From Terriglobia bacterium (lineage in GTDB: Bacteria; Acidobacteriota; Terriglobia; 20CM-2-55-15): a DNA stretch of 64,000 nt. Numbering within the stretch: the first letter of the stretch is position 1; every line of letters begins with the position of its first letter. Shown here in pieces: positions 9,714 to 63,093 of the stretch. The stretch spans positions 1,216,001 through 1,280,000 of the forward strand of contig CAXWPJ010000009.1 in NCBI GenBank assembly GCA_963664115.2. Reading direction: 5' to 3'. A program made the translations under genes and the position numbers. Below the pieces are notes generated by a model, which worked only from the letters and a program-made list of their open reading frames with translations, ran no database searches and was not told the origin of the DNA.

Positions 9714-9750
9714 GAAATGAGTTTTCCGCTACAGGTTGTAAGGGGCCGAG

Positions 9751-9832
9751 TGCGAAAGGAGGGACTCGAACCCTCAAGGGTTACCCCACTGGATCCTAAA
9801 TCCAGCGCGTCTGCCAGTTCCGCCACTTTCGC
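9751..9832 (-). tRNA. tRNA-Leu(TAG)
   Basis: Reverse complement GCGAAAGTGGCGGAACTGGCAGACGCGCTGGATTTAGGATCCAGTGGGGTAACCCTTGAGGGTTCGAGTCCCTCCTTTCGCA: acceptor stem, anticodon stem CTGGA/TCCAG with TAG, long variable arm, GTTCGA T-loop; CCA not encoded. Confidence 0.96.
9793..9832. repeat. att site (left junction), 40-bp direct repeat = 5' half of tRNA-Leu
   Basis: atcctaaatccagcgcgtctgccagttccgccactttcgc is identical at 22168-22207. Confidence 0.93.
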
Positions 9833-9847
9833 GCACGTTTAAAATCA

Positions 9848-9876
9848 ATTATTTGGAGAATCCTGCCACTTTCCAA
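9848..9876 (-). promoter_or_regulatory. Candidate island-supplied sigma70 promoter for tRNA-Leu/tig operon
   Basis: Minus strand TTGGAA-N17-AATAAT, ending 15 nt upstream of the tRNA 5' end, inside the integrase 3' end. Confidence 0.4.
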
Positions 9877-10630
9877 TTAGGCGTCGATGGGGAGATTCGT
9901 GGGGACTCGACTCCTAATTTTGGCAGCTTCGCCACGAACTCTCGTTTGTAATCCATCGACAAGTGAGTATATCGCATCGTCATCTTCGGGTCCTTATGTC
10001 CCATGAGCTCCATTTGCGCTTTACTCGTCACTCCGCTCATCGCCAGCCATGATCCGTAGCAATGCCGGAGGTCATGGAAACGGAAGTCTTTCAGCCCGGC
10101 ACGTTCTACTGCGTTACAGAACGCCGTTCTCCAGTCCTTCCAGGGTTTCCCGTACCGATTGATGAATACCAAATCCTCTGGAGCCCGTTCACGCTCGGCC
10201 TTCAGTTGATTCAACGCCTCGAAGAGATCTTCCGTCATAGGGACTGTCCGCGTCTCACCGTTCTTGGCGTAGCAGCTCTCGACGGTGATCGACCGGTTCC
10301 GTATATTGACGTTGGACCAGCGCAAGGATGTGATTTCTGACTTCCTGAAGCCCGTATGCATCGCCATCAAAACGACGACGCGGAAATCAGGGTTGCAGTT
10401 AGCCAGCAGCGTCTGGACCTCTTCCTGGGTCAAATAGCGCGTCCTACCGTTATCTTCGCGGTACAGCTTCACTTCGCTGACCGGATTCTTCTTGGCGAAG
10501 CCCCACTTGGCGCACACGTTGAAGAGGTTTTTGAGCAGAGCCAACTCTCTGTTGACCGTGGCATCCGCAGCCTTCGCCTTCTTAGCGCTCCCGTTTGTAC
10601 TTCTCGATCAGGAGGATTGGAGAGAGACAT
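9849..10630 (-). pseudogene. Tyrosine integrase, N-terminally truncated and frameshifted
   Basis: Catalytic domain intact (TGFRKSE, AKNG, FHDLRH, LMGH, MRYTH), but upstream homologous IEKYKRER lies in a different frame from ADATVNRELALLK (shift near 10584) and the N-terminal domains are missing. Confidence 0.8.
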
Positions 10631-10705: not shown

Positions 10706-11416
10706 TCAAATATGGAACACGCGCATATGCATGCCGCCGAGAGAAATTCGGCAGAGCAGATCGAATCTGAACTTGCACTTCGTCCTATCGAAGAATTCAA
10801 AGAATGCTCGCGTCTCGCCGGTGTTCGGGTTATCTGTCCAATCGTCAAAGCACAGGTAGGCGCCATCCACAAGCCGACCCTCAAGAAATTCCAAACATTC
10901 AGCAGCTGGCTGATAAAGGTCGCAGTCAATCCGGGCAAAGGCGACGGAGGTTATGTTCGCCCGGATGTCAGGACGCGCCAGCGTATCTGAAAACCAGCCC
11001 TTGACGAGGGAAACACTAGGGCGAGATTTCGCTTTCAACCGCTCCAAGACGGATTCGTAATCGGCGGCGAACTGACCCTTTTGCCAATAAGGGGCGTCAA
11101 GAGAGGAAGGCTCAGGTAGCCCTTCAAAACTATCGAATCCGTAAATATTGATCTTCAGTCCGATCTCTTCTGAGTACTGGATCAATTGTTCGAGGCTATT
11201 TCCTACAGACACGCCGAATTCCAACAGATCCCCTTCAATCAAGGTATCGTGGACGTTCGTCAAAAACTGTTTCCACATACGGCTCTCTATTTTCCAGATG
11301 GTCGCTTGGAGCTCCAACGCTTCGGGAGACCCCCAAGGGAAAGGGAATCGAATCCAGGCTGGCGGACCGTCGGGCTCACTCTGGAAGGCGGTCTTGTAGA
11401 GCTGGTCGTAATCCAT
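10706..11416 (-). CDS. TylF/MycF-family O-methyltransferase
   Basis: LEFGVSVGNS, GFDSFEGLP, VKGWFSDTL, RIDCDLY, CFDDW motifs. Confidence 0.88.
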   Translation of the reverse strand: MDYDQLYKTAFQSEPDGPPAWIRFPFPWGSPEALELQATIWKIESRMWKQFLTNVHDTLIEGDLLEFGVSVGNSLEQLIQYSEEIGLKINIYGFDSFEGLPEPSSLDAPYWQKGQFAADYESVLERLKAKSRPSVSLVKGWFSDTLARPDIRANITSVAFARIDCDLYQPAAECLEFLEGRLVDGAYLCFDDWTDNPNTGETRAFFEFFDRTKCKFRFDLLCRISLGGMHMRVFHI

Positions 11417-11557
11417 TCAGAACCTCGATTCCTTCTGTCCCATCCAGCAAACCTGACGGCATCGTGGCAAGCCGCGTGCGCGCCACACTTCTCCCATCCC
11501 ACCCTTGCCGAGGAGACTCAGGATCTCGTAGTGGCCGAGTTTAGAGCCAGATTCCAT
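11417..11557 (-). pseudogene. Ser/Thr kinase N-terminal stub 1 (46-aa ORF)
   Basis: [28 protein letters not shown] (Gly-rich loop) followed by unrelated sequence; its TGA directly abuts the TylF ATG. Confidence 0.85.
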
Positions 11558-11633
11558 GTTCAAAGTGTGTCGCTGAAAAAACCGAGAAAAACTCGGTAAA
11601 CGATACTAGAGGTGGGTGTTAGGCGCTATCAAA

Positions 11634-11670
11634 TTCTCAACGCCTGATAAACATTGGCGGACACTGAGAA
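11634..11670 (-). repeat. Degenerate inverted copy of palindromic site (A')
   Basis: Reverse complement TTCTCA GTGTCCGCCAA tgt TTATCAGGCGT TGAGAA (spacer shortened to 3 bp). Confidence 0.6.
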
Positions 11671-11689
11671 ACCCCAGTAATTTGCCCAA

Positions 11690-11729
11690 TTCTCAACGTC
11701 CGACAAGATGATTTCTCAGGACTTGACCC
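11690..11729 (+). repeat. Palindromic 6-11-6-11-6 site (A)
   Basis: TTCTCA ACGTCCGACAA GATGAT TTCTCAGGACT TGACCC; homologous copies at 14920, 18224 and, inverted, 14772. Confidence 0.85.
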
Positions 11730-11811
11730 CGAGAGTCACGGCACCGGCACCCGTTCTTTCAGTTCTTCAATGTTGACTCACTGGAATCACACCGCGACTT
11801 TTGAGTCCAGC

Positions 11812-12456
11812 TCAGCGCGCTAACGAGCTCAGGTTCAGGGCCGTCATGGCGACGACGTAGATCGCGACAAAGTAGTACCAGCCACCCACCAGCTTCGGCA
11901 TCCGAAAGGGAGAAACGTTTAGGATGGCGAGTGTAACGACCGCAACGTAGAGTGCCCACGAGAACGCAGGGTGCCCCAATAGCTCACGGAACGGAAACAG
12001 AGCCGTCACAACGATGATATTGCTGTCGATCGGCAGGCCGCTGTACGCGCCGCCGTCGTGGCCAAGAATGTTGAAGTGAGCCAACCGAATCGCTCCCGCA
12101 ATCACCAGCAGAAAAGCGCCTGGTAGAAACCAGGGCTCGAAGTCGCCAATGCTGATCAGGAGCATTGCGGGAGCGACGCCGCTGGATACCATATCGGTAA
12201 GGGAGTCCAGTTGCGCGCCGAAGGCCCGGTCCTCGTCGGTCCGATCGGTCATTCGCCGAGCCAGCGGACCATCGAACCAATCGCAGAACAGCGCCCACAG
12301 CAGAGCTGTGCTGGCGGCGGTATAGGCGCCGCGCACACTGAACCAAATAGCCAGAATTCCGCATACCAACCCCGCCAAGGTCAGCAGGTTGGCTCGGTCG
12401 TAGACAAAAGACAGGGCGCTTCGTCGGCCGGATGGACTCGTCATTGGGGCAGGCAT
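11812..12456 (-). CDS. CDP-alcohol phosphatidyltransferase (PssA/Pcs-like)
   Basis: DWFDGPLARR...FGAQLDSLTDMVSSGVAP signature; multiple TM helices. Confidence 0.9.
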   Translation of the reverse strand: MPAPMTSPSGRRSALSFVYDRANLLTLAGLVCGILAIWFSVRGAYTAASTALLWALFCDWFDGPLARRMTDRTDEDRAFGAQLDSLTDMVSSGVAPAMLLISIGDFEPWFLPGAFLLVIAGAIRLAHFNILGHDGGAYSGLPIDSNIIVVTALFPFRELLGHPAFSWALYVAVVTLAILNVSPFRMPKLVGGWYYFVAIYVVAMTALNLSSLAR

Positions 12457-13607
12457 TTCCGCATCGCTTCGACGAGCATATGGTTCTCCGCTGCCGTCCT
12501 GCTGGCGATGCGCAGATACCGATCGGCATCCGACATGTGTTTACCAGCGCAGTGCTTGACGAAGATGTTGTGCTCCACGAAGAGCCGTTTGGCGATGACC
12601 GGACCGGATGGGCCTGGAGCTGGGAGACGACACATTACGAAGTTAGCCTGAGGTCGATATGCTGTCATTCCGGGTATCTCGTTCAGCCCTTCGTAGAGCT
12701 CATCGCAGTGTTCGCGAACCAGAGCGCAACTCTGCCTGAACGCCTTGCGCCAGCGCGGTGCCTCGCGCAGGAAGGCTTCCGCGAAACCGTTGATGTTCCA
12801 GATGGGCAACTCGGCGCGCACCGCGTTCGCGAATTCCTCATTGGCCGTCAGGAGATAGCCCAGCCGCAGTCCGCCGATCCCGAAGGACTTGCTCAAGCTC
12901 TTGAGGACCGCGAGGTTGGGAACGCGGTCAACCCAACCCTCCACGCTCAACTCCTGATAGTCGTTTGCAAAGTCGATGAAGGATTCATCGACAACGAGCA
13001 TGCACTCGGCCGATTCGAGTTGCGCGGCAAGGCGCAAGATGTCTGCTCTGGGCACTGCCAACGAGGTGGGATTGTTAGGTGTCACTACGATGGCCAGTTT
13101 TGCCTCGCTCTCGAGAACCCGTTGGGCAAAGGCATCTACGTCGAGTTTGAAAGTGGGAGAGGGCAGTTCGAACGGGACGAAGGCGCCAGCTCTCGCAGCG
13201 TCCTCGTACTCGTTGAACGAGGGCACAGGACAGGCGATCGGGCCGGGAAGGCGACCAGCGATGATCTTAATCAGTTCCGAAGCCCCGTTTCCAACCAGAA
13301 TGCGAGAGGAAGGCTGACCGATCAAAGTACCCACGAGCCGCGTGACAACTTCCTGTCCCGGAGGGTAGTTGAACACCAGCTCTCGCAAGTTGTTCTCAAA
13401 ATGTACGAACATCGTTTTAGGCGGGTAATAGGGATTGTACAGGTAGGCGTGATCGATAAACCCAAAGCGCCAATATCCCCCGTGCTGGCTCTGGACGTGG
13501 TCGTAACGCTCCTCGCCTGAGTTGGATAGATACTCAGCCGCCAATCGGTCACTTTCATCGTCGATCTCGCGCTTACCGGGCGTGAGATTCCATCGGTCGG
13601 CTTTCAC
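12441..13607 (-). CDS. PLP-dependent class I/II aminotransferase/decarboxylase (HisC/CobD-like), probably lacking an N-terminal nucleotidyltransferase domain
   Basis: GNGASELI, TPNNPT, VVDESF, KSLSKSFGIGGLRLGY PLP-lysine motif; N-terminus begins with an EIDD remnant. Confidence 0.88.
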   Translation of the reverse strand: MKADRWNLTPGKREIDDESDRLAAEYLSNSGEERYDHVQSQHGGYWRFGFIDHAYLYNPYYPPKTMFVHFENNLRELVFNYPPGQEVVTRLVGTLIGQPSSRILVGNGASELIKIIAGRLPGPIACPVPSFNEYEDAARAGAFVPFELPSPTFKLDVDAFAQRVLESEAKLAIVVTPNNPTSLAVPRADILRLAAQLESAECMLVVDESFIDFANDYQELSVEGWVDRVPNLAVLKSLSKSFGIGGLRLGYLLTANEEFANAVRAELPIWNINGFAEAFLREAPRWRKAFRQSCALVREHCDELYEGLNEIPGMTAYRPQANFVMCRLPAPGPSGPVIAKRLFVEHNIFVKHCAGKHMSDADRYLRIASRTAAENHMLVEAMRKCLPQ

Positions 13608-13634
13608 GTAGATCTCCCTGAATCTGCCAGAGCG

Positions 13635-14471
13635 TTAACTTGCATTCTCTAGCATAAAAAAATGGTTCTGGAGCTTTGGCCAGCGCACACGAAGCCGCGC
13701 CGCCGCTCGGGGAAGAAGCCCGAAGCATACGGGCGACGTAGCCCGTAGCGACCACCAGGTCAAAGCGCCAAGAAAAGGTGAGGTGTGCGGCAGCATACGC
13801 AGGTAGCGGCGTCGCAGTTCGACGAGTTCGACTGCGATCTCCATATAGGTATAAGCGTAGTTTCGACGTGTGTCGACGCGCGACAAGCCAGCCTCTCGAA
13901 AGAGCGTTCGGTAAACGTCGACGCTACGATAGATCGCATGGTACTCGCCCTCTCTGTGCTCGTAACCGTTCGCAACGGTAGTCTCCCGTAAAACGACTCG
14001 CCCCCGATCACCGAGGCGTTCGATAACTGCTTGAACGAGCGCGATCGTGTCAGCGTCGCTCAGGTACATGCAGATTCCTCCTAAAAAGACGAGATCAAAT
14101 GGCCCCGGCGGCAATGGCTCTCGAACGTCCTGGTTCAGAAGCTCCACGTTCGACCGGTCCGTGAGCTTCTTTTTTGCAGCGACCAGCATCGCAGGGCTCT
14201 GTTCAATCCCAATGACGCTGCCGAAGCGCTGAGCGAAGAACTCGGTCCAGGTCCCCGACCCACAGCCCAAGTCAAGTACACGTGCTTGCGGCCCCCCGAC
14301 ATCGAGCCAGTCGCGTATCGCTCGGCGTTCCTTCTGGAAGCGATAACGAACAGCGTTTTCGGGCAAGTCTTGTGCGTGGGCCATGTAGCTCGCACAAGCC
14401 GCCGTGTCGGGGCCAGCTTGAGCAAAGTAGCGCCTAACCTCCCGGTAGTCGATCTGGTATTTGCCACTCAT
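13635..14471 (-). CDS. Class I SAM-dependent methyltransferase (resembles phosphoethanolamine N-methyltransferase domains)
   Basis: VLDLGCGSG motif I; FDLVF...MYLSD...VVLRET segment. Confidence 0.85.
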   Translation of the reverse strand: MSGKYQIDYREVRRYFAQAGPDTAACASYMAHAQDLPENAVRYRFQKERRAIRDWLDVGGPQARVLDLGCGSGTWTEFFAQRFGSVIGIEQSPAMLVAAKKKLTDRSNVELLNQDVREPLPPGPFDLVFLGGICMYLSDADTIALVQAVIERLGDRGRVVLRETTVANGYEHREGEYHAIYRSVDVYRTLFREAGLSRVDTRRNYAYTYMEIAVELVELRRRYLRMLPHTSPFLGALTWWSLRATSPVCFGLLPRAAARLRVRWPKLQNHFFMLENAS

Positions 14472-14697
14472 GTTCTGTCGCGCACCTTTTACGCGATAGG
14501 CACCACAAACTACGTTTCAGCAGTCCGGTCGGTGTCGCTGGGCCTCGCTCTCGGCCCCCGCTGGTCAACTCATGCGGACTTAAACCGCCGCATTCGTTGT
14601 CAAAGTAGATTTTCGCGGGCTTTCCACACCTCGTCCATGACTCCTTACTTATTGCGGAGAGGATCTCGTAGCAGCCGAGTCGGGTGCCAGGGGGCAT
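14434..14697 (-). pseudogene. Ser/Thr kinase N-terminal stub 2 (degenerate)
   Basis: MPPGTRLGCYEILSAISK; DNA atggacgaggtgtggaaagcccgcg corresponds to the MGEVWKAR segment in a shifted frame. Confidence 0.7.
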
Positions 14698-14737
14698 GAT
14701 TCAGCGTGGACTGTTCTGAGCGGCGCAAACTCACTAA

Positions 14738-14766
14738 ATGATATGTAAATAAGGGGTTAGAAGCAA
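14738..14766 (-). promoter_or_regulatory. sigma70-like promoter of the repeated unit
   Basis: Minus strand TTGCTT-N17-TATCAT, ~40 bp upstream of the stub ATG; equivalent element at 11597, 18162 and 62833. Confidence 0.6.
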
Positions 14767-14771
14767 ATAGA

Positions 14772-14811
14772 GTCTCAAGTCCTGAGAAACGACCTTGTCG
14801 GACACTGAGAA
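14772..14811 (-). repeat. Inverted palindromic site (B')
   Basis: Reverse complement TTCTCA GTGTCCGACAA GGTCGT TTCTCAGGACT TGAGAC. Confidence 0.85.
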
Positions 14812-14919
14812 TAGGCGAGCTTCGAGTGTCGCAGTAATTCATTGAAACAATGAGAGATATAGCTCGTTAGCGACCAATCGAGGAAGGGCAGGCGAGAGGA
14901 GGATTTCCGTTCGGTGAAA

Positions 14920-14959
14920 TTCTCAATGTCCGCGAAGATGATTTATCGGGACCTGAGAA
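14920..14959 (+). repeat. Palindromic site (B)
   Basis: TTCTCA ATGTCCGCGAA GATGAT TTATCGGGACC TGAGAA. Confidence 0.85.
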
Positions 14960-15004
14960 TCGTTTTTAAGGCAGGGCTCAAGAAAATTCGATGGCCGCCG
15001 GCTG

Positions 15005-15211
15005 GTGCAGCACTTGTTATGCCGTTTCTTCGCTGAAACAGAGAATGTATCCGTCGGGAACGGAGGCGAATCGGAGTGGTCGCCCGATGGCAGGACGCTC
15101 TACTTCCGAAACGGAAATCAGCTGCTGGCCGCCGACGTTCTTGATGCCGATAGTATGACTCTCGGTGTGCCGCGGCGGCTCCAGCTTTGCGACGGCTTAT
15201 ATCTCTCGTAA
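15005..15211 (+). pseudogene. Fragment of TolB/PD40-like beta-propeller (typical C-terminus of kinase-propeller proteins)
   Basis: VSVGNGGESEWSPDGRTLYFRNGNQLLAADV...LGVPRRL; isolated fragment. Confidence 0.65.
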
Positions 15212-15328
15212 TTCACCATCCTGACGCCTGCTTCGCCCCCTGATAGCGGCCGTTCGAAGACAATGCCTCAGGTCTGAGATGAACTCAGGGTTTAACTTTG
15301 GGACTCGGCGGATTTCGGGCCCCTCGCG

Positions 15329-15739
15329 CTAGTCTTTGCTCGTGCCGCGAATGTTGGAACCCGTTCCTCGCGAGTAATACACGCCGTTCACTTCCATACC
15401 CATGAACTCCCCGGTGCGTCGGGACTTGTTCCGTGGAGGATGAGCGATGATCTTGACCCGATTCCCGACCTTGAGAATCTGCGGCGAGATTCCGGATGCC
15501 ACCATGGACGCGGCCCCGGAGCCCTCAAAACCCCAGCTCTCCGTCCCGCCCTCGGCAATCGGCACATCGAGGGTGACCCACATGTGCGGATTCCTCCACT
15601 CGACGTTGGTGACCACGCCTTCGACGGAAATTAACACGTCCACGTCGAACATCGCACGCGAATGATGGGCCGACAGCGGCGCCGCCATTGACACGAATCC
15701 GAGAAGCATCGCTAGGATGCCGAGTGCCTTCCAAAACAT
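15329..15739 (-). CDS. Exported DUF6152-like protein
   Basis: Signal peptide then AHHSRAMFD...EGVVTNVEWRNPHMW; GGAGG RBS before MFWK. Confidence 0.75.
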   Translation of the reverse strand: MFWKALGILAMLLGFVSMAAPLSAHHSRAMFDVDVLISVEGVVTNVEWRNPHMWVTLDVPIAEGGTESWGFEGSGAASMVASGISPQILKVGNRVKIIAHPPRNKSRRTGEFMGMEVNGVYYSRGTGSNIRGTSKD

Positions 15740-15792
15740 ACCTGCCTCCTTCAAAATCGCGACAGCGATTCGCCACCCAAGTGCTGAATTCG

Positions 15793-16651
15793 TTAACCGA
15801 GGCGCGAAAGATAGGTCTCCGGTCCATCCTCCGGCCGGCACAAGACCTCTTCGATTTGATCGACCGTCTGACGCTTGAAGGTGACCGTCGGCGTCTCCCA
15901 GGGTATCGTCAGCGAGTTCTCATCTTCTGCCCTCGCCTGATACTCGAGCGTGTCGGCATCGATGCGACGCCACCGCTCGACGACGTGCATCGCGTCAGAG
16001 GTCAACCACACGCCCGTGCTGGCGTTCGTCGGCCTATCCTCGGGGCTCGCCAGCCATCCTTCACCGTTGAATGAAACCACGTCGACCACGAGCGTGTCCC
16101 CTTCCCACACTGCCGTTGAGTCGCCCATGTAAGTGGGATACAAATACTGCTCCGCGGTGTGCGGCCTTCCGGTCGTTGGAATGATCCGGTAGACCGGGTA
16201 CGCCTCGGTGAGCACGAATGCGAATCCGGGGCTCTGAATAATCTGGATTGGGTGCCCCAGCATCGCGGCGCGCGGAAAAGCGGGAGGAGCGCAGCAGGGT
16301 TGGGCAGCGAGAGTTCCTCCATCCAGGGTTCCGGTCGTTGGAATGATCCGGTAGACCGGGCGGGTCATCCTCCGCCGAGAGTTCCTCCATCCGAGCGCGC
16401 GCGGCGGGCGTGTACAGTCCCTCGAGCGTCGCCAGATCAAACGTATCGCGTCCGGAACTAGCGCCAAGGGGCGGCGCCCTCCAGACACCAGCTAGATCTG
16501 GCTCTCCCCACTCGGTCCGCGCCGAAAACGAACCGGTACCTGTCGAGGCGCTGTCGTTCGCGCCGTTCTCGTCCATCACTAGTCGCAGGCCGAGCAGCAC
16601 GGCAGCTCCAACGACCAAGCCAATGCCAATAGTCATCGCACGTCCGCTCAT
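15793..16651 (-). pseudogene. Exported hypothetical protein, frameshifted/scrambled near 16310-16395
   Basis: N-part MSGRAMTIGIG...RTEWGEPDLAGVW and C-part GDSTAVWEGDTLVVD...VERWRRIDADTLEY are in different frames; internal repeat 16167-16198/16329-16360. Confidence 0.65.
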
Positions 16652-17925
16652 TGGACACCCCCGTCGAGGGTTCAACGGCGGGCGCACCCGACGCCTCCCT
16701 CTCTGCTTGCTGGACGGCGAACTCCCGGTGTCGCGCGTCCAACTCGGGATCCGGGAAGCAGAGTGACTCAAAGAGCGTGTCGTACGGCATGAGGCCCCGG
16801 CGAACGACCGATCCGGTCCATGGAGCCGTGAGCATTTTCGAGTCTTCAACGACCACGCTGTATTCAATGATCTGCGCGTCCGGCCGACTCCAGCGCTCGA
16901 CGATGCGCAATGCGTCCGAGGAGGTTTGCGGCAGCTGATCCGGCGGCCGAGCTGGCCAAGCCAGGGCTTGCCGTTGAAGTTCAGGGTCACCTCCACGACC
17001 AGCGTGTCGCCCTCCCAATGACCGACCGACGAGCCTTGAAAGGAAGGCTTGTGCGACGCACTCGGTTGGGGTTCGTTCTCGCCAACGATTGGGATGATCC
17101 GGAAGTAGTCACCGCCCTCGTTGAGCATCAGGAGGTATCCCGGGGCTGACACCAGTTGGATGGTTCCGGCGCCGAGCCCGAGCGCGGCCAGCAGTGATAG
17201 TTGGGGGTATCGATGCCTTGCCAATCGATCAGGCCGACCGCGGCACCTCCGCCCTCTCTGTATTCGCGCACCTCCGGACGGTACAGCGACTCCAGCGGAA
17301 CCGGGGGCCGCAGCCAATAGACGCCCTGGGCCAAGCCAAAATCCACGACCAGCGTGTCGCCCTCCCAATGACCGACCGACGAGCCTTGAAAGGAAGGCTT
17401 GTGCGACGCACTCGGTTGGGGTTCGTTCTCGCCAACGATTGGGTGATCCGGAAGTGGCCCTCGTTGAGCATCAGGAGGTATCCCGGGGCTGACACCAGTT
17501 GGATGGTTCCGGCCGCCGATCAGTGAGTTGGGGGTATCGATGCCTTGCCAATCGATCAGGCCGACCGCGGCACCTCCGCCCTCTCTGTATTCGCGCACCT
17601 CCGGACGGTACAGCGACTCCAGCGGAACCGGGGGCCGCGTGACTGTCGCGTCGGGCCAATAGACGCCCGAAAAATCCGGTTTCCCGTCCCACGACGTGCG
17701 TGGCACTGGATATTGCACAGGATCAGATTCGTACGCAACGAGACGCCCTCTCGCCTCGGAGCGAGTCTCCACGCCTTCAGGGAGGAGTTCTACAATCCGC
17801 TCTGTCCAGTCCGCGCCCGCCCCCGCCGCCTGTGGCGGGGTATAGGGCTCTATCTGAGCCGATGCGCGAAAAGCACCGAGGGCCACAAGCAGCGCCATTA
17901 CGGCGATTCCGGAACGAGTCAGCAT
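16650..17925 (-). pseudogene. Exported hypothetical protein of the same family, disrupted by a ~350-bp tandem duplication
   Basis: RTSWDGKPDFSGVYW, GSSVGHWEGDTLVV, LRIVERWSRPD motifs scattered over frames; 16992-17326 repeated at 17342-17668. Confidence 0.65.
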
Positions 17926-18122
17926 CTCCGTCCCCCTAACTTTCTGATGCTCAAAGCATGCATTTCTGTGTGAAAAGAGAAGGTGGAAAATTCTTCAGGC
18001 AGCGTCTTGATCGCAACTTCACGCCCAAGTTTCGTGTCCTTGGCACGCCATACCTCACCCATACCACCCTTACCTAAGAGCGTTGAGATCTCGTAGTGGC
18101 CGAGTTTGGTACCGGATTCCAT
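17919..18122 (-). pseudogene. Ser/Thr kinase N-terminal stub 3
   Basis: [45 protein letters not shown] (subdomains I-II) then unrelated sequence; stop overlaps the next start (ATGCTGA). Confidence 0.9.
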
Positions 18123-18365
18123 AAAATAGTGTGTGCCGAATCGAAAAGCGAAAATGTTGAATAAATCTAACTACAGGTGGGGGTTATAAGCAAGGAAGTT
18201 GTGAGCCCGTGGGCCTCGCCTAATTCTCAACGTCCGAGAAGATGATTTATTGATGGTATGGACTCCTCTTTGATGACTGAGTCGGCATCGAAGTGCCAAA
18301 GTCATTTTGAGCCTCGCAATAAAGCGGGCGAAACACGTGTACGTGTGAACAAAAAGGAGTCCGAG

Positions 18366-19400
18366 ATGAAGAATAGAACGATAGCAGTGGATCTGGCAAA
18401 GAATGTTTTTCAAATTGGTGTTTCAGATCGCCCCGGGCATGTAGAGAAAACCTATCGTTTAAGTCGGGCAAAGTTTCTGGGGTTCTTTGCGAACCAGGAG
18501 CTGGCGACCGTGGTGATGGAAGCCTGCGGATCCGCCCATTACTGGGGTCGGAAGATCCGGGAACTGGGACACACGGTCGTTCTGATCTCGCCGCAGTATG
18601 TGACGCCCTACGTCAGGCGCAACAAGACCGACCGTACGGATGTGAAAGGATTGTTGGAAGCCTATCGTGACAGCGATATTCATCCAGTGCCGGTCAAAAC
18701 CCTGGCCCAACAGCAACTGACCTCATTGCATCGAATCCGTTCGGCGTGGATGCGAACCCGAACCGCACGGATCAATACGGTGCGGGGGTTGTTACGGGAG
18801 TTTGGCTACGTGATCCCGACCGGAGCGGATCATCTGGTGCCGGGGGTAATGGAGCTGATCGAAGATGCAGATGTCGTCATCCCCAGTGTCGTTCGGGAGA
18901 TGTTTCACCAGGTGTGTGGCGAGATCCGTGAATTGGAATCTCGCATGCGATCGGTGGAACAAGAGTTGAAGACGCTGGCTCGGCAGATGCCTGAGGTCGC
19001 GCGTCTGACGTCGATTCCCGGCATCGGCCTGTTAACGGCAACGGCAATGGTGGGGTTTGTTGGAAACATCAAACGATTCCGAACGTCCCGCCATTTTGCC
19101 AGTTATCTGGGACTCACACCCCGGGAACATTCCAGTGGCAACCAGCGACGCATGGGCCGGATCAGTAAGCAAGGCGATCGTTACCTCCGGATGCTGTTGG
19201 TTCATGGGGGCCGTTCCCTGTTGTGGAGTGCCCATCGAGAGGGCGCCACACCGACACCTCTCCAGCAATGGGGTCTCCAGAAACACGAGTTCCGCGGACA
19301 CAACAAGGCAATCGTTGCACTGGCCAACAAGTTGGCGCGTCGCGTGTGGGCGGTTTGGAACCGTGACTGTGACCATCAGGCCCGGTATCAGGCGGCCTGA
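18366..19400 (+). CDS. IS110-family DEDD transposase/recombinase
   Basis: AVDLAKNVFQ, MEACG, KTDRTD, SIPGIG, GLTPREHSSG, GRISKQGD, ALANKLAR; start at MKNR after AAGGAG. Confidence 0.93.
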   Translation: MKNRTIAVDLAKNVFQIGVSDRPGHVEKTYRLSRAKFLGFFANQELATVVMEACGSAHYWGRKIRELGHTVVLISPQYVTPYVRRNKTDRTDVKGLLEAYRDSDIHPVPVKTLAQQQLTSLHRIRSAWMRTRTARINTVRGLLREFGYVIPTGADHLVPGVMELIEDADVVIPSVVREMFHQVCGEIRELESRMRSVEQELKTLARQMPEVARLTSIPGIGLLTATAMVGFVGNIKRFRTSRHFASYLGLTPREHSSGNQRRMGRISKQGDRYLRMLLVHGGRSLLWSAHREGATPTPLQQWGLQKHEFRGHNKAIVALANKLARRVWAVWNRDCDHQARYQAA

Positions 19401-19690
19401 CCCGGAACAGTCGGAATATCTTTTCAGCGAGCTGCGATGAGGTTCGAGATGATGGCGTACCGGTCAGACCGGCGCGGGGCAACGCCGACAAGTCCTTTGG
19501 CCCTTAGAGGCCGTTATTTTATCGGTTGGCTCCCCGCGCGCAAATTTCCATCATGGCCTGGAACAATACAGTTCCACTTTTGAGGCCGAAGATACGGGTG
19601 CAGTCGACTAGCTACTCACCTCGTAACTTCTAGTCAGTCCTGCTGAATGCATTTTGCCGAAGAAAGCTGACGGGAGAGCTGCGCCTACTT
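19401..19690 (+). ncRNA. Putative bridge/seek RNA of the IS1111-type element
   Basis: Stem gcgcgggg/ccccgcgc enclosing CAAGTCC and TTTAT (match target); second loop CCATCAT and AGATA (match IS ends). Confidence 0.7.
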
Positions 19691-19731
19691 GACAGAGGAG
19701 TCCAGATACGGGACTTGACCTCATTCTTTGG

Positions 19732-33044: not shown

Positions 33045-33593
33045 ATGGTTGACGGATTGATTCGGAACAAAGCAGCCGGTGGAAACGGTTTTTCGCTGAT
33101 CGAGGTTCTGGTCGTAGTTGGAATCATTCTCGTCCTGATTGGTGTGGCCTTGCCGAACCTGACCAGCATGAATGCCGCGATGTTGCTGGACGGGACCGCT
33201 CGCGGTATGGGTTCGCTGGTGCAAAGAGCCCATTACGACGCGATCAGCGACACGACCGGCTACCGTGTGGTGATCTACGGCGCGAACTCAAGTTCGAACG
33301 CAAACTCTTACAAGCTGCAGCGAATGGTTCCGGCCGCCCCTTTCAGCCTGACGGCAGGGTCCAACTGGACTGACGTCGGGGATCCTATTCCAATTCCGAG
33401 AGGGATTGACATGGTGACGAACGCCCCGGAAGTGAGTACGGGTGTTGTGGCGGTGATTCTTGACAGTGCCGGAGACGTCATCGATGAAAACGGTGCCTAC
33501 ATTACTTCGGAGATCACCATCACGCTTACCAATGATCTTGGAGACAGCAATATTGTCTATATCGCATCCACAAGTCACGTCCGGATCGTGTAA
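33045..33593 (+). CDS. Type IV minor pilin, FimT/GspH-like
   Basis: Prepilin site G|FSLIEVLVV plus hydrophobic helix. Confidence 0.85.
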   Translation: MVDGLIRNKAAGGNGFSLIEVLVVVGIILVLIGVALPNLTSMNAAMLLDGTARGMGSLVQRAHYDAISDTTGYRVVIYGANSSSNANSYKLQRMVPAAPFSLTAGSNWTDVGDPIPIPRGIDMVTNAPEVSTGVVAVILDSAGDVIDENGAYITSEITITLTNDLGDSNIVYIASTSHVRIV

Positions 33594-33993
33594 ATCAAGA
33601 TCCGGCGAGGCCGGAATGACTTTAGTCGAAGTGATGGTATCGGCCCTCATTTTGATCGTTGGGGTTATGGCGGCTGCCGGAGCTCTGACGGCCAGCATCA
33701 TTGGTACGAGGACCAGCCAGGACATCACACGAATCACGGCAGGTATGCGCCAGAAAATGGAAGAACTGAGATCGACGGACTATGCCTCACTCGCTACAGG
33801 CAGCGACTACCTGGATGTCAATGGCGCTTCCCAATCCAGTTCCACCGGAGCCGCTTACACTCGCACTTGGACCGTGACTGCAGATTCACCAACAGCCGGG
33901 CTTTCTAAAATCGACATTACAGTTACCGCCGCGCAGGTTTTCGTCCAAACAATACCGATTCAATTTTCAGTCAGCTCCTACAGGGCGCCGTAG
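33553..33993 (+). CDS. Type IV minor pilin, PilV-like
   Basis: G|MTLVEVMVS, KMEELR, YTRTWTV; probable TTG start at 33553 after GGAGA. Confidence 0.8.
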   Translation: MSISHPQVTSGSCKSRSGEAGMTLVEVMVSALILIVGVMAAAGALTASIIGTRTSQDITRITAGMRQKMEELRSTDYASLATGSDYLDVNGASQSSSTGAAYTRTWTVTADSPTAGLSKIDITVTAAQVFVQTIPIQFSVSSYRAP

Positions 33994-34028
33994 CCTTCCA
34001 GGGAGTTAGCATAATGAGGCTGTGACCT

Positions 34029-34940
34029 ATGAACACGAGCAGGAATCACGGATACTCACTCATCGAGATCATGGTTGCGCTCGCGGTATTGCTAGTCATT
34101 CTGGGAGCAGTCTTTCTGCTGGTGACTCAGAATCAGCAAACCTACCAGATTCAGCAAGCGCGGCTTGAAGCCGGGCAGAACGCCCGTCTTGCGTCAGAAA
34201 GAATCGGGCGCGAACTTCTTTCCGCTGGATACAACACGCCCAGCGGTGTCACACCCATCAACGGTGCGACTGCGAACAGTATTACTTTTTCAGGGGATGT
34301 GAACGACGACGGTACGGCTGAAAGGGTAACTTTCGCGTTGTCTGGAACGACGATCACGCGGACCAGTCAGCCTCTGGATGCAGACGGAAATCTGACCGGA
34401 ACCGCAACGACACAAACTCTTGCCTCCAATATATCCGCATTGGACTTCACCTATTTTCTCAATAGCGGTGAAGCCGGCACGTTTGTGGGGATGCCGGGAT
34501 CTCCGATCGCCTCCCTGAAGCCGAGGTTTGAAATCTTCGCATTTCTTCGCATTCTGGCCAGTCGAATGGGATTCGTCACTTACGCAGCACAGAATACAAA
34601 CTCAAACTCAAACTCAAACTCAAATTCGAACTCTAACGAAAGCAGTGCTGGCTCAGGCGGTCAAAATTCGGTGGCAACGGCCGATCTTGGACTGATTTCC
34701 CGGGTCAACTTGGGCGTGACCTCGGTTTCTACCACTGACGATCCGGTCTCAGGTGACCCGATAAGCGTGACGATAAATACCGATGTCACTCTGCGTGGTG
34801 AATCGATAACAGGCTTCATCACGTCGGGCGGTAGCGCCAACGCGAATTCAAACGCCAATTCAAACAGCAACACCAATAGCAACGCCAACGCGAACACGAA
34901 TACGAATACGAACAGTAATTCCAACAGTAACGGGAGCTGA
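34029..34940 (+). CDS. Type IV minor pilin, PilW-like, with Asn/Ser low-complexity tracts
   Basis: G|YSLIEIMVA, RELLSAGY; (NS)n and (NA/NT)n repeats. Confidence 0.85.
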   Translation: MNTSRNHGYSLIEIMVALAVLLVILGAVFLLVTQNQQTYQIQQARLEAGQNARLASERIGRELLSAGYNTPSGVTPINGATANSITFSGDVNDDGTAERVTFALSGTTITRTSQPLDADGNLTGTATTQTLASNISALDFTYFLNSGEAGTFVGMPGSPIASLKPRFEIFAFLRILASRMGFVTYAAQNTNSNSNSNSNSNSNESSAGSGGQNSVATADLGLISRVNLGVTSVSTTDDPVSGDPISVTINTDVTLRGESITGFITSGGSANANSNANSNSNTNSNANANTNTNTNSNSNSNGS

Positions 34941-34947
34941 GGCGGCG

Positions 34948-36201
34948 GTGAGAAGAATCTGTTCAGTAGTGGCGCGTGCGTTTGCGAAGAGATCCGGCCG
35001 TAGACATCAGGCTGGAGTTGCTCTGATTACCACGCTGATCCTGCTCTCGCTGATGAGTGCACTGACACTCGCCCTTCTCACCAATCTATCGGAAGATCTG
35101 CGATCCAGCGCTGCTCTGGAGAGCGGCCTGGTCCTGTTTTACGGGGTGGATGCCGGGATTGAAGAGATGCGGGTGCGTTGGTTGTACGGTGCCAGTTCTC
35201 GGGTGACACCACCGGCGGCGCCGACACCGGATTGGGCGGGTTATATCCGCCAGTCGTCCTCTGTCGACATCCTGACCCTTGATCCCGCATACGACGACTA
35301 CGCCTCAACGACGGTTGTTGATGGACTCGGTACGCCTCCCTACACTTTGGTTAAAATCTTCTACAACACCGAGGCCAACAAGAATCGTGACGTGAACGGC
35401 GACGCCTCCCTCGACAGCACGACCGTCATGTACCTGGGCGACGATGGGGCCGGAGGGCTTGCCCGGAATCTTACGGCAACAGGAGCTCCGGTTCTCACGA
35501 TTCAGGCGTACGTGGAGGACGACGATCGAAGAGAAATGGTCGAGGCGGAGATCATTTCGATTTTCGTAACGATCCCGACTGTCGACGCCGTCGTCAGAGC
35601 GAACGACGACGCCACCTTCAACGGCAATCTGTCTGTCAATAAGCTGGATTCTCAGGGAACGCTTCCGGGCGTCCAGGCCGGAGGTACCGCAGAGACGCCC
35701 GGGGCGAGCCAATTCTTTATTCCCTCCGGTGCTGACGACGTCGTTTCTGGAGTCACACCGGACTACGATACGGCCAGCTACGTAGCGGCCGCGGCAGAGG
35801 TCTTCACGTTGATCACCGAATACGCGACGCCAACCGTGACCCAGGCCGACCTTTACCGCTGGACCGGCTTCGCAGTGGGTTCTGACGCTAGCCCCGCCTT
35901 GATGTACAGCGACCGCTCCATCGACATCAACGGAAACAACGGAAGCACTTACGGAATCATGGTCGTTGATGGTGATGTGAGTTTGTCGAATCTTGCGTTC
36001 TACGGCCTCATAATCGCTTCCGGCGACATCACTATGGGAGGCGGAGGATCAAGCGGTGGAAACATTTACGGAGCAGCGATAGCGGGTGGAAGCTACACAG
36101 GTGGAGGCAGCTTCAGCCTGCAACTGGACAGGGATCGCATCGACAACTATCTGAACGCGATCCGGACCAAAGTGATCACTTTCAGGGAAATACGGAAATG
36201 A
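34948..36201 (+). CDS. PilX-like pilus assembly protein
   Basis: G|VALITTLILL without Glu5, FYGVDAGIE, C-terminal GIMVVDGD..FYGLII..W/FRE-type end. Confidence 0.8.
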   Translation: MRRICSVVARAFAKRSGRRHQAGVALITTLILLSLMSALTLALLTNLSEDLRSSAALESGLVLFYGVDAGIEEMRVRWLYGASSRVTPPAAPTPDWAGYIRQSSSVDILTLDPAYDDYASTTVVDGLGTPPYTLVKIFYNTEANKNRDVNGDASLDSTTVMYLGDDGAGGLARNLTATGAPVLTIQAYVEDDDRREMVEAEIISIFVTIPTVDAVVRANDDATFNGNLSVNKLDSQGTLPGVQAGGTAETPGASQFFIPSGADDVVSGVTPDYDTASYVAAAAEVFTLITEYATPTVTQADLYRWTGFAVGSDASPALMYSDRSIDINGNNGSTYGIMVVDGDVSLSNLAFYGLIIASGDITMGGGGSSGGNIYGAAIAGGSYTGGGSFSLQLDRDRIDNYLNAIRTKVITFREIRK

Positions 36202-36371
36202 CACTCTGCGATCGGAGAAAATGTTCTCTGTTTGGTGTTCAGAAACATGAGTAACGAGTCCAACAAGCTGTCGGGTATCTCAGTTGTCCTGCCCTGTCAC
36301 AACGAACGCGACAATCTTGCTGACGTCGTGTCGAAATCGATAGCGTCAGCGGCGTCCTGTGCTCACACTAG

Positions 36372-38220
36372 CCCCAAAACAAGCGCATAACCAGTCCGCC
36401 GAGGCCCAGTTCGCGCCGATAGAATTCGAGGCATAGAATCCCGTTCCCGGATGGCCTGTTCCAGGTATCGAGTTTCTGTTGAATCTGTTTCAGTTCAGCC
36501 TCGCTGGTGTTGGACGGTTGACAGAAACCGGGACCTCGATCGCCCGGGCTCAGAGTCATGATCGGGTCAACATCGCAGAGGCTGACGCAACACATCCACC
36601 CCGCGGAACAAGACCGGCAACCACCGGTTCCAGGCCAGGATCCGGAACAGAATGCGCCGCCCGGTGCGCACGAGTTGGCACGGCACAAGCATGAAAGCGT
36701 TCAAGAAGGTTTTGAACTCCATGCGCAGCACGGTTTGCTTCTCAGCCTGATATTTTTGGCCCCAACGTCCGGTTTCGGGAAGCAGCAATGCAAACCACGC
36801 TTTCAGTGTCCAGGCCAGTGACGCGATCACCATGTAGGCCCAGTTGCTGGTCTGATCTCCGACCGGCATCCGCAACGCCTGAACGCCGTTCTTCAACTGC
36901 TCAATGAGATTCTCCTGATTGCACCGTTGATTGGCACGCATCACAATCTGGTCGGCCGGATCCGAACGGTTGGTAATGTAGAAGAAGTACCGGATGTCGT
37001 CAAACAACACCTGCTCTCCTTTGGCCACCGACAGATTCTTCCGCACCACGACGACACGGTAGTCCCGATCGCAGGCTCCGGGTCGATACCGAAACTCGGC
37101 CACATCCTCACCCTGCAAGCGGATATTGTCGAAACCGCGCTGCCGAACGATCTCTTCCTTCACGTTGTCGGGACGTTGGCGCGGTTCGGTCGCCACGTCG
37201 TATTTCGCGGGCCGTTCCAGGCGCTTCCACTGGCGCGGCTCCAGTTCATCGGCCCGGGCCTTCAGGTTCGCCATCGCGTCAATCCCGAATATGAAACCCA
37301 CCTGCTGGTCGTCCCATCCGTCCAGATGCCGGGTCTGGCTGAAGTCCGTGTCCCCGCGCAGCAGGATCTGGCGAAACCCCGCATGCCGGCACAATGCGAT
37401 GGCTTGGTCGAACCGGACCGCGGCTCCTTCATGCGACGGCCGGTTGCCGCTACGATTGACCAGATACAGCGGTTCGGCGGTGTTGGCCAGCGAGATCATC
37501 AGCGGGTGATATCCCCACGTCCCGTCGTAGGCCACGTCCATCCCTTGCTTGCATTCCCCCGTGGTTTCGGCCAGTGTCCCGTCCGCGTCCAACACCGCTT
37601 CTTCGAAAAACGCCGCCGGTTGCTGTCGCCAGACTCCGAGCCGGACTTGATTGGTTGCCTCCATCAGACACTCCACGTCGTCGGCCTCGAATCTCCGGCA
37701 GAAGTCTCCCGCCGTCGTCGGATCCGGAATCCGTTGCGCTCCCAGCGCATCCAGATACACCGCATCGTTGCGCCGCAGTTCGATGTCTTCCAGGCACGTT
37801 CCTCCGCTCAAGGCGTTGTAGGCGATGTTCAGCACGTGATCCGACTCGTGATACGGCAGGTGCCGCTTCAACACATGCACGCCCTTGTCGATGGCTTCGA
37901 TCAGCCCGGTCCGCCGCGCCACCAGTTGCATCGTCCCGATACCACCAACCGATGTGCCCCGCGTCCGCTCTCCCATCTCGTACTGAATGTTGCTCGCCGA
38001 AAACATCGGCTCTACCTGATCCGTCCAATGCCGGTCCCCAAGCCGACGTTCGATTCGCCGCTTGCGGTTCCTCATGTTCTTGCGCGTATAATCGTTCATC
38101 TGAAATGCCTCCTTTTCCGAAGAATCTGTTCAAGGTTTTTTTCGCACGGAGAGGGGGCATTTCGGGTACTTCCGCTCTTATTGCACTATCATTTCCTCGT
38201 CAATCACGCTTGTTCAGGGA
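36372..38220 (-). mobile_element. IS1380-family element, copy 1 (1849 bp)
   Basis: Imperfect IRs ccccaaaacaagcg / cgcttgttcaggga; CTAG at 36368 and 38221. Confidence 0.92.
36567..38099 (-). CDS. IS1380-family transposase
   Basis: LDADGT, GYHPL, LLRGDTDF, QENLIEQLK DDE motifs; 510 aa. Confidence 0.9.
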   Translation of the reverse strand: MNDYTRKNMRNRKRRIERRLGDRHWTDQVEPMFSASNIQYEMGERTRGTSVGGIGTMQLVARRTGLIEAIDKGVHVLKRHLPYHESDHVLNIAYNALSGGTCLEDIELRRNDAVYLDALGAQRIPDPTTAGDFCRRFEADDVECLMEATNQVRLGVWRQQPAAFFEEAVLDADGTLAETTGECKQGMDVAYDGTWGYHPLMISLANTAEPLYLVNRSGNRPSHEGAAVRFDQAIALCRHAGFRQILLRGDTDFSQTRHLDGWDDQQVGFIFGIDAMANLKARADELEPRQWKRLERPAKYDVATEPRQRPDNVKEEIVRQRGFDNIRLQGEDVAEFRYRPGACDRDYRVVVVRKNLSVAKGEQVLFDDIRYFFYITNRSDPADQIVMRANQRCNQENLIEQLKNGVQALRMPVGDQTSNWAYMVIASLAWTLKAWFALLLPETGRWGQKYQAEKQTVLRMEFKTFLNAFMLVPCQLVRTGRRILFRILAWNRWLPVLFRGVDVLRQPLRC

Positions 38221-45735: not shown

Positions 45736-46212
45736 TCTTGCCCGGTTGTGTGAAGTTTGGTTAGAACTCGTAACGCAATCCGAACTGGATCTGCCGGCCC
45801 GAAGTTACGGTCGAGGAGATCACTCCGAAATTACCGCTGCCAAATTCCTGGTCGGGCAGTCCGAAGTTGGGGGTATTCGTGAGGTTGAAAATCTCAGTTC
45901 GGAATTGTAGCTCCCGGTCTTCGTTGATCGGGAATTTCTTAACGATCGAAAAATCCAAAACTCTCAGAGCCGGTCCCCGGGCCGTGTTGCGTCCGAGGTT
46001 GCCGAACGCTCCTGCAGGTGCGGTAAATGCGGCTGCATTGATCCAGTTATCCGGACCTTGGTTGCTTGCTACCGGATCAACACCTGCGACGACGTCCGGA
46101 CGGACGGTTCTGTTGGGAAGATGTATGGTGAAGGGACGCCCGGCCTGCAGTGTCAGAATGCTGTTCATGTTCCATCCGTTCAGCAGATGTCCCGCCATGC
46201 CTTCATAACTAG

Positions 46213-56979: not shown

Positions 56980-57120
56980 CTCACTCCTTTTTTAACAGGT
57001 TTTTTTCGCAATTCGGGGTCAACGTCCCTGGAGGGAGTCGAAACGAAATTCTCGATAGTAATGTCGGATGGGGGGAATACCGGCCGGCAGATCACGGTCG
57101 GCGAATCTCACGGATTCGAT

Positions 57121-57210
57121 CGATGTGTCGCCTGTCTTTTGCTACACGGACCGGACCGATGTGTCGCTTGTCTTTTGCTATACGGACCGGACCGATGTGT
57201 CGCTTGTCTT
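57121..57210. repeat. 36-bp tandem repeat x2.5
   Basis: cgatgtgtcgcYtgtcttttgctaYacggaccggac. Confidence 0.85.
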
Positions 57211-57363
57211 CAAATAAAGGACACGATGCCATGGTTGCCTTACTCCTGTAGCGGAAACAAACAACCTAGAGAACTAGGCGAATCTTATAGAAGGAAGGTC
57301 GTCCGGTCAATTCAAACTGGCAAACAACAGCCGTTTACGGAAACAGGCGTCTGCTGCATCTTC

Positions 57364-57849: not shown

Positions 57850-57872
57850 ACTCTCCTCCGGTGCGGTACTAG

Positions 57873-60388: not shown

Positions 60389-60520
60389 ATGGAAACCGGC
60401 ACCAGATATGGCCATTACGAGATCCTCGCACTCAAAGGCAAGGGTGGCATGGGTGAAGTGTGGCGTACGCGAGACACCGGGTTCGGGTGTGCAGCGGCGA
60501 CCAAAGGCTCCATTACATGA
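60389..60520 (+). pseudogene. Ser/Thr kinase N-terminal stub 4 (43 aa)
   Basis: [30 protein letters not shown], then unrelated sequence and stop. Confidence 0.85.
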
Positions 60521-63059: not shown

Positions 63060-63093
63060 GACAAACAGAAGTCCCGTTTTTGGACACTGAGAA
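63060..63093 (-). repeat. Degenerate palindromic site
   Basis: ...agaa gtcccg tttttggacac tgagaa aligns with site B' right arm. Confidence 0.5.

Follow-up and report, generated by a model that had tools for sequence, protein, structure and literature searches.

The stretch of DNA considered here, hereafter the window, comprises 64,000 nucleotides from the genome of a Terriglobia bacterium (assembly GCA_963664115.2; positions 1216001-1280000 of contig C9 in the source genome, G000, which amounts to 4.89 Mb in 12 contigs). It contains several copies of a 40-bp repeat with dyad symmetry, standing between groups of genes, and the question that it raises is what such a repeat does there and which enzyme, if any, acts upon it. 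A first-pass annotation, made from the sequence alone, had proposed that this is a tyrosine-recombinase-type site at the borders of movable gene modules. That proposal has stood up in part, in that homology breaks off at the sites, their spacers are not random and whole modules recur in different islands. The repeat, which is present about 180 times between rearranged modules, is in our view fairly probably the crossover site of a dedicated, mobile family of Xer-like tyrosine recombinases, namely the product of the gene at C5:52192-53139 in G000 and its relatives.

The repeat, its two classes and the modules between them

A genome scan of the kind envisaged in the first-pass annotation gave a clear result: a matrix seeded with four copies from the window, with the spacer masked, and then trained on the genome finds 178 intact sites at a cut-off of at least 20 bits, against 0, 0 and 0 in three shuffled versions. 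This figure excludes copies split by insertion sequences (IS) or lacking part of the spacer, of which there are several dozen more, and it includes nine pairs of sites with both 400-bp flanks identical, which could stem from overlaps in the assembly or from long stretches duplicated recently. The sites are spread over ten of the 12 contigs, and 143 of them lie in clusters of three or more that together span 394 kb, or 8% of the chromosome. All the window copies had been described as intergenic, and genome-wide this is true of 177 of the 178, judged by the strong calls of our own simple gene caller. The consensus reads TTCTCA ACGTCCGAGAA GATGAT TTCTCAGGACT TGA(G/C)(A/C)N. The originally proposed layout of 6-11-6-11-6 survives as far as its 11-6-11 core is concerned; the part held in common with distant lineages is 13-6-13 (CA + 11 + 6 + 11 + TG), while the outer TTCT/AGAA is specific to this lineage.

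Within the window (see the table below for coordinates), sites A, B and D read exactly as first described and score 55.7, 48.9 and 52.0 bits, the next-best position other than the split site C scoring -4.6, and the spacings of 3230 and 3304 bp between A, B and C are correct. Site C is indeed interrupted by an IS element, and although the split copy scores only 10.1 bits its arms score 30.4 and 23.9 separately. The inverted copy reported at 11634 is real, but it is not a 40-bp site: in a 40-bp frame it scores -25 to -38 bits, whereas a 37-bp reading on the minus strand, with three spacer bases missing, gives arms of 21.9 and 20.7 bits. Of the degenerate copy placed at 63060 there remains just a left half (14.5 bits), the right side being absent (-34.8 bits). 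Elsewhere in G000 there are fusions of one left arm to another with centres of 4 or 2 bp (C2:253771, C9:991786), and these, together with the many sites that have 3-bp spacer deletions, look like by-products of breakage within the spacer. There is also a third, decayed variant of the site with the spacer GCCGAC, found 45-90 bp from many of the main sites (C2:258796, C2:332368, C12:429563, C12:544095 and others), and genus g10 has a related variant whose right arm is different.

Classes of site had not been told apart, and here the first-pass annotation needs amending: going by the last three bases of the spacer there is a major class, GAT (138 of the 178), and a minor class, CGT (25 of the 178), one particular spacer being fixed in 131 of the sites. 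Orientation follows class. Over all 133 neighbouring pairs analysed, 88 are direct and 45 inverted; major-class neighbours are direct in 85 cases out of 91, neighbours of mixed class are inverted in 37 out of 39, and the minor-class pairs are inverted in two out of three. All 15 back-to-back pairs less than 200 bp apart consist of one site of each class, with a spacing of either 57-64 bp (11 pairs) or 148 bp (four pairs), and the run E-A-D-B in the window alternates in orientation. Comparison between lineages shows conserved arms with differing spacers. Two other interpretations of these orientations were considered and set aside. Replichore polarity does not hold generally, the orientation of the major class tracking GC skew on certain contigs only, C2 not being one of them; and folding together of back-to-back sites in the manner of phage CTX finds no support, since the paired spacers mismatch at three or four of their six positions. 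Seen in terms of the two classes, the 3230 bp from A to B are not the one module that they were first taken to be: the cargo is bounded by the inverted pair A and D, and the 108-bp filler between D and B makes the whole a pair of modules.

That modules bounded by sites have moved can be seen from where similarity ends. Among 93 ends of low-copy duplications in the islands, 32 lie no more than 35 bp from the centre of a site, against 2.45% expected, and the same is true of 15 out of 50 ends of segments shared with the related genome G002 (in the 19 regions taken for comparison); such ends are not independent of one another, so that p values derived from them are overstated. A 1327-bp module running from site to site occurs in both C2 and C6 with 99.3% identity, and one of 423 bp occurs in C6, C10 and C11 with 95.5% identity. 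In many pairs of loci 380-400 bp are common on one side of the site and 0-1 bp on the other, with just the 40-bp site joining the two, and in 18 pairs positions 1-6 of the site travel with the left flank with a single mismatch. Transfer between species is suggested by the low-copy segments shared with G002, which have a median identity of 94.8%, compared with 87.5% for the tig-lon backbone. Copies of the three-gene cargo between A and D that are 90-95% identical occur in different surroundings in five of the 34 other genomes of the family; there the homology stops at kinase stubs or at the edge of the site, and none of the five has an intact site at the ends of this cargo, although G001 retains the right arm of D and G013 has a variant site.

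The kinase stubs just mentioned are remnants of a Ser/Thr kinase gene that in this genus is closely tied to the site. Its last codons lie on the right-arm side of 70 of the 138 GAT-class sites, and its start, with a conserved upstream region, on the right-arm side of 18 of the 25 CGT-class sites, the background being 0/3000. Whole copies are found between a CGT and a GAT site (C5:155675-158506) and between two direct GAT sites (C10:248430-251286), and 27 kinase-domain matches occur in G000, five of them in unbroken frames of at least 870 aa. There are 65 kinase 5' ends in the genome, after which the next gene is on the same strand in 50 cases and on the opposite strand in 12, with none following in three. 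Cargo is often enclosed by a leftover 5' end and a leftover 3' end. The lengths of the stubs are ragged, implying that genes enter the kinase frame without site specificity, and we infer that kinase interiors were lost by illegitimate replacement and trimming. Since kinase tails and stubs are also present in genera without the site, the link between the two is best regarded as a feature of this genus. The genes carried in the islands (87 of the 105 proteins called in eight island regions were surveyed, the 18 omitted being mostly transposases) are of mixed kinds, among them hydrolases, glyoxalases, dehydrogenases, proteins with metallo-beta-lactamase folds and DUF6152 proteins.

Distribution of the site and the case for a dedicated recombinase

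In order to say what acts at the site it is useful to know where else it occurs. A pattern scan with a free spacer and up to two mismatches found it in 15 of 401 genomes of the class: five in genus g1 (145, 101, 52, 17 and 3 matches), four in genus g4 (6, 2, 1 and 1) and six in a distant family (1-5 each). In g115, a distant genus of Terriglobia, the arms are nearly the same, the spacers have CGT or GAC as their last three bases, the classes are mostly opposed in direction, and no kinase stubs flank the sites. Seven of 64 parts of a metagenome collection (about 1100 stretches being estimated in all) yielded 123 loci with 135 sites between them; the spacers of these sites vary in their first three bases and end in CGT in 66 cases and in GAC in 55. 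No exact match to the pattern was found in viral contigs, and no real DNA match among the plasmids of PLSDB. There is, however, an unannotated array on the conjugative plasmid pACIX905 of Granulicella tundricola (NC_015060.1:68697-91806). It occupies about 23 kb and has more diverged arms, with 31 of the 32 site-like places found (in the 85 of 115 kb scanned) being intergenic, and it comprises about ten back-to-back pairs; several sites seemingly have 7-bp centres. In genus g115, in the metagenomes and on this plasmid the two-class architecture exists without the kinase link.

G000 has 27 matches to the tyrosine recombinase domain PF00589, and the gene that stands out is the one on C5 already mentioned, which lies between two inverted CGT-class sites of identical core whose left arms face it. 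Its product has the SAM-like and catalytic domains with the R-H-R-H-Y motifs, and it scores only 127 and 123 bits where the cut-offs for XerC and XerD are 335 and 330. The two sites also have identical spacers, and each is followed outwards by the kinase promoter region and 5' stub (C5:52059-53270); it could be that this segment inverts itself. Among the 123 metagenome loci, seven contain a tyrosine recombinase, and six of the seven belong to the candidate's family, with 58-63% identity. In five of these six the nearest strong site is of the CGT class with its left arm towards the gene, whereas the site closest to the gene in L347 is one of the GAC class on its 3' side. In G000, L286, L293, L347 and G243 the family gene has a site, be it whole, split or halved, 55-130 bp upstream, and on pACIX905 a family gene (product WP_013573308.1, 59% identical) lies inside the array, one site preceding it by 61 bp and another following it at 6 bp. 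Among 34 family loci obtained by protein search, ten have a site-like sequence within about 210 bp, as against one of 30 xerD loci, three of 25 distant windows and 16 of 680 shuffled sequences. The family as a whole occurs in 84 of the 401 Terriglobia genomes (five candidates having been scored per genome).

Two other recombinases were considered and rejected. The phage-type integrase of the window, which is linked to the tRNA-Leu, is truncated, and its intact counterpart in G002 (a 391-aa open frame, 83% identical) has no site in the 40 kb around it, the DNA shared with G002 stopping at window position 10613; it is probably a relic of the host island and not the site's enzyme. IS91-type elements carry a tyrosine recombinase of their own, and five of six identical copies begin beside a site (C1:92862, C1:108661, C2:196384, C12:159174, C12:486923). 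As candidates for the enzyme they fail on other grounds, as the 19 copies examined in G001 have no site within 1.5 kb and none occurs in G003.

A scheme along the following lines can be suggested. The candidate recombinase would excise, insert and invert modules at the site, recombination taking place only within a class, i.e. between sites whose last three spacer bases are GAT/GAC or between those with CGT. Direct GAT-GAT pairs such as A and B would release a module or module pair, which could re-enter at another GAT site. In this genus the kinase gene may have been the founding cassette, its ends and promoter being kept while other genes replaced the interior. Genomes that have the sites but no copy of the recombinase would receive it transiently from plasmids or incoming DNA.

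A number of observations weigh against this assignment. Of the 34 family loci 24 are without a clear site, and their flank scores beat those of xerD flanks at p=0.054 only (rank test). The family is present in only five of the 15 site-bearing genomes, compared with 84 of 401 overall; no member was found in G002 (two contigs, 97% complete, 101 pattern matches), G003 (52 matches), G331 or G399, and all that G347 has of it is a C-terminal fragment. Of the six matches from metagenomes four group with the G243 gene in a single clade (the tree does not include L320), while for the plasmid array the matrix was trained on its own matches and the regular expression (8 matches versus 0.035 in shuffles) was relaxed after these had been seen. 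Neither do crossovers fall cleanly in the spacer: modules whose flanks are 99% identical are often unlike at positions 8, 14-15 and 26-27, and one 1329-bp module has four of its seven internal differences within its inner arms. An exchange of strands on one side only, coupled to branch migration, could be responsible, as could gene conversion between copies. No circle, empty site or A-B junction appeared among the joints examined in eight of 24 sequencing runs, but these runs say little on the point, all eight being contig sets that break at the repeat; apart from an assembly-error joint at 16295-16362, the joints examined have short sides matching paralogous copies. Lastly, among the recombinases compared (all 12 matches in G003, 18 loci of 27 in G002, all ten in G004, 10 of 13 in G331 and G399, 4 of 43 in G347), only XerC and XerD are common to all seven site-bearing genomes, which were covered in full or in part.

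Given that the candidate family was not found in two site-rich relatives, the host's own XerC, with or without XerD, has to be taken seriously as a rival: the same modules would then be driven by XerC, with XerD acting on a non-canonical arm much as in the dif modules of Acinetobacter or the attP of TLC phages, and the neighbouring recombinase would be cargo. We regard this as unlikely. Apart from the shared presence of XerCD, it can call on the left arm of the site, which agrees on average at 8.6 of 11 positions with the XerC arms predicted for Ellin345 and at 8.0 with those for Solibacter (arms from PMC3025954), so that of the original statement that the site resembles neither attC nor dif the second part goes too far. 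Spacer variation is moreover on the left side, and pdif sites tolerate mismatches beside the XerC arm (PMC13141974), while TLC attP is driven by XerCD in spite of its divergent XerD arm (PMC5357621). The organism's own dif tells a different story: a candidate at C2:108118-108145, near the GC-skew switch (about 100 kb), has a normal XerD arm and is single-copy in 11 of 41 relatives (genera g1, g3, g4 and g10), and the site matches it at only 6.8/11 in the left arm and 5.0/11 in the right. Agreement of the right arm with XerD arms is 5.0-5.9/11. XerCD activity is tied in PMC11705084 to the arrangement ATAA-spacer-TTAT, whereas an inner ATAA is found in 0, TTAT in 37 and TTATGT in 0 of the 178 sites (ATAA does occur in 65 of the 135 metagenome sites). 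The right arm also varies between lineages although xerD is conserved, and it is the candidate family that is enriched beside the sites. The helix-J residues of XerD proved uninformative as a marker, being identical in site-rich and site-free genera.

The remaining explanations do without a recombinase of either kind, or without a double-stranded site. If the sites were relics or protein-bound repeats, modules could move by homologous recombination between the 100-200 bp of repeated sequence that site and kinase stub together provide, and the spread of exchange boundaries over positions 7-37, the cargo of A-D, which in five genomes is bordered by kinase stubs and lacks an intact site at either end, and the kinase remnants of site-free genera would all suit this. 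What makes it improbable is that so many pairs share nothing but the 40-bp site on one side, that the two classes exist elsewhere without any kinase, and that the spacer is fixed in most sites. An operator for a transcription factor controlling the kinase genes or their replacements, which the first-pass annotation had named as the outcome that would speak against its proposal, is very improbable indeed: dyad symmetry, the position of most CGT-class sites before a kinase start and the promoter-like match abutting site E are consistent with it, but half of the GAT-class sites follow a kinase stop codon, and breakpoints, orientation rule and fixed spacers would go unexplained. Hardly any weight can be given, finally, to a site acting as a folded single strand in the manner of an integron attC or of REP elements. 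A consensus-like copy does fold into a hairpin with two bulges (-10.9 kcal/mol) and G000 has an integron integrase-like gene, but the two halves of the dyad do not covary (only 48 of 119 sites have bases at positions 15 and 26 that pair, and linkage is absent from all pairs across the spacer), which largely refutes the idea and upholds the earlier statement as regards attC; the integrase-like gene is 196 kb from the nearest site, and none was found in G003.

Layout of the window and its insertion sequences

The features of the window are collected below. The match to a sigma-70-like promoter comes from a scan whose count is at chance level (one found, 2.3 expected), so its function is putative. 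The 108-bp filler has kept its length and sequence in at least five places (the window, C2:319951, C9:911042, C12:509760 and G003).

Features of the window, in order of position
Feature	Position	Strand	Remarks
tRNA-Leu, island edge	9750..9832	-	
Phage-type tyrosine integrase, N-terminally truncated	9849..10544	-	PF00589
TylF-type methyltransferase cargo	10706..11416	-	second copy (97%) 17 kb upstream, then kinase tail and damaged site
Ser/Thr kinase gene 5' stub	11478..11557	-	
Sigma-70-like promoter match directly behind site E, in conserved kinase upstream region	11603..11632	-	
Site E, CGT class, 37 bp, 3-bp spacer deletion	11634..11670	-	
19-bp filler between back-to-back sites E and A	11671..11689	.	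related fillers genome-wide
Site A, GAT class, spacer GATGAT	11690..11729	+	
Ser/Thr kinase gene 3' stub (last codons)	11730..11770	-	
Cargo operon, three genes	11812..14471	-	methyltransferase 13635-14471, class I/II aminotransferase 12441-13607, CDP-alcohol phosphatidyltransferase 11812-12456
Decayed kinase 5' stub	14659..14702	-	
Site D, CGT class, spacer GGTCGT, inverted to A and B	14772..14811	-	
Conserved 108-bp filler module between D and B	14812..14919	.	4 copies between intact sites in G000, 1 in G003
Site B, GAT class	14920..14959	+	
Cargo: DUF6152 protein and partner genes (exported proteins)	15329..17925	-	DUF6152 protein 15329-15841
Kinase 5' stub and conserved upstream region	17984..18193	-	start codon ends 18122
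Site C (GAT class) part 1: left arm, spacer, first 4 right-arm bases	18224..18250	+	
IS110-family element, 1458 bp, IS1111-type	18251..19708	+	subterminal inverted repeats, downstream non-coding region
Site C part 2: remainder of right arm	19709..19721	+	
Further kinase 5' stub, no intact site adjoining	60389..60504	+	
Isolated left half-site	63077..63093	-	

Three types of IS insert into the site. The IS110-family element of the window is inserted at a fixed position: seven of the nine left ends shown follow left arm, spacer and TTAT, and ten of the 13 right ends shown continue into the rest of the arm. A second IS110-family element stands behind the spacer (7/7 left and 6/6 right ends), and an element with HTH_38 and rve domains, which we take to be IS30-like, lies inside it (7/8 left and 6/6 right ends). 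In the non-coding region of the window element, at 19447-19497, a 7-mer equals the sequence to the left of the target and is followed 42 bases on by the reverse complement of an 8-mer from the right of the target; these are possibly guide segments of a seekRNA or bridge RNA, although they are too short to be significant by themselves. The features of this element fit the IS1111 type as set out in PMC11187229, where such elements target attC, and IS1202-family elements target Xer sites (10.1101/2022.12.17.520857).

Other features of the window may be dealt with briefly. Irregular spots in the cargo between B and C (16295-16362, 16983, 17169-17179 and 16992-17640) include local duplications and frameshifts that are probably assembly errors: contig sets from four sequencing runs skip 16296-16361, where they have eight letters of their own instead, and contain indels close to 16983 and to 17169-17179. 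A DDE_Tnp_1_4 transposase element occurs in three identical copies (36367-38160, 46208-48001 and 57868-59661); four genes at 33045-36201 have N-terminal methylation or PilX motifs, the third with an Asn/Ser-rich low-complexity repeat at about 34580-34930; and a 36-bp repeat is present three times in tandem in the intergenic stretch 57109-57216. No Rfam family other than tRNA was found in the window. As to provenance, the labelled runs that contain part of window 11400-15400 are seawater, sponge, sediment or marine metagenomes, and those labelled sponge metagenome contain 0.19-0.23 of the words; no habitat is assigned on this basis.

Relation to known systems and wider meaning

The closest parallel is provided by the pdif sites of Acinetobacter Rep_3 plasmids and the chromosomal dif-module islands, which are recombined by the host's XerC and XerD (PMC13141974, PMC12907356, PMC11705084). 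Common to both are an 11-6-11 core, small cargo modules between sites in chromosomal and plasmid arrays, neighbours whose spacers differ when the sites are inverted and agree when they are direct, module pairs between direct sites, site-targeting IS elements, and modules that recur in differing order and place with breaks at the sites. The differences are equally clear, for here there is no canonical XerD arm and no ATAA/TTAT core, there are two extra conserved bases on each side and only two spacer classes, direct repeats of the major class dominate (85 of 133 pairs) without strict alternation, some 180 sites compare with the 22 of an Acinetobacter chromosome (PMC12907356), kinase-gene ends frame the cargo, and the recombinase is likely to be the system's own. 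Because neither the XerD arm nor the alternation is found, the present system is not assigned to the Acinetobacter dif modules.

With the chromosomal dif of Acidobacteria (Kono et al. 2011, PMC3025954) the site shares a 6-bp centre, and its left arm is close to the XerC arms predicted for Ellin345 and Solibacter, but dif is a single copy at the terminus whereas the site has 178 copies alongside a separate dif candidate; xerC, xerD and that candidate being all present in G000, the site system is no replacement for XerCD/dif in dimer resolution. The attP of TLC (an IMEX, like VGJ and CTX; PMC5357621) has kept an XerC arm while its XerD arm is divergent. As in XerS/difSL and XerH/difH, where xerS and xerH adjoin their own sites and the centre of difSL is 11 bp (PMC5357621), members of the candidate family adjoin the site. 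All of these, unlike the present arrays, are single attachment or resolution sites.

An integron attC is a single-strand hairpin maintained by base pairing, in an array linked to an integron integrase. The present arrays resemble integrons in their direct repeats of cargo comprising one to three genes, with the site behind the gene, and in being targeted by IS1111-type elements (PMC11187229); they differ in the fixed length and double-strand type of the site, in the want of pairing covariation, in the second, inverted class and in having no link to an integrase-like gene. A full-text literature search, in which subscription papers lay outside the coverage, gave no description of such sites in Acidobacteria. 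The main text of PMC8138268 makes no mention of Acidobacteria, though its datasets may classify the candidate family, and PMC3469429, in the part relevant here, lists acidobacterial integrases with no cassette.

Taking all of this together, one may tentatively, and at somewhat less than an even chance, picture in the Terriglobia a phylum-wide cassette platform on the scale of integrons. It would consist of a single mobile Xer-like recombinase acting, in chromosomes and plasmids alike, on 13-6-13 sites of two address classes; in the present lineage it would have grown to some 200 sites, adopted the ends of a kinase gene as a promoter-carrying frame for captured genes, and exchanged these between species. 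If that is correct, bacteria would have a third means of keeping and reshuffling their accessory genes in addition to integrons and the dif modules of Acinetobacter, and this in a phylum whose gene exchange is little known; the system would structure about 394 kb (8%) of a chromosome and move genes between species (about 95% DNA identity as against 87.5% for the backbone segment). A candidate enzyme can at the same time be named for a family of recombinases, so far unannotated, that is found in 84 of 401 Terriglobia genomes, and since the cultured soil bacterium Granulicella tundricola has both gene and array on pACIX905 the mechanism is directly testable. Genome engineering, too, would benefit from two non-interchangeable classes of site that a single enzyme recognises.

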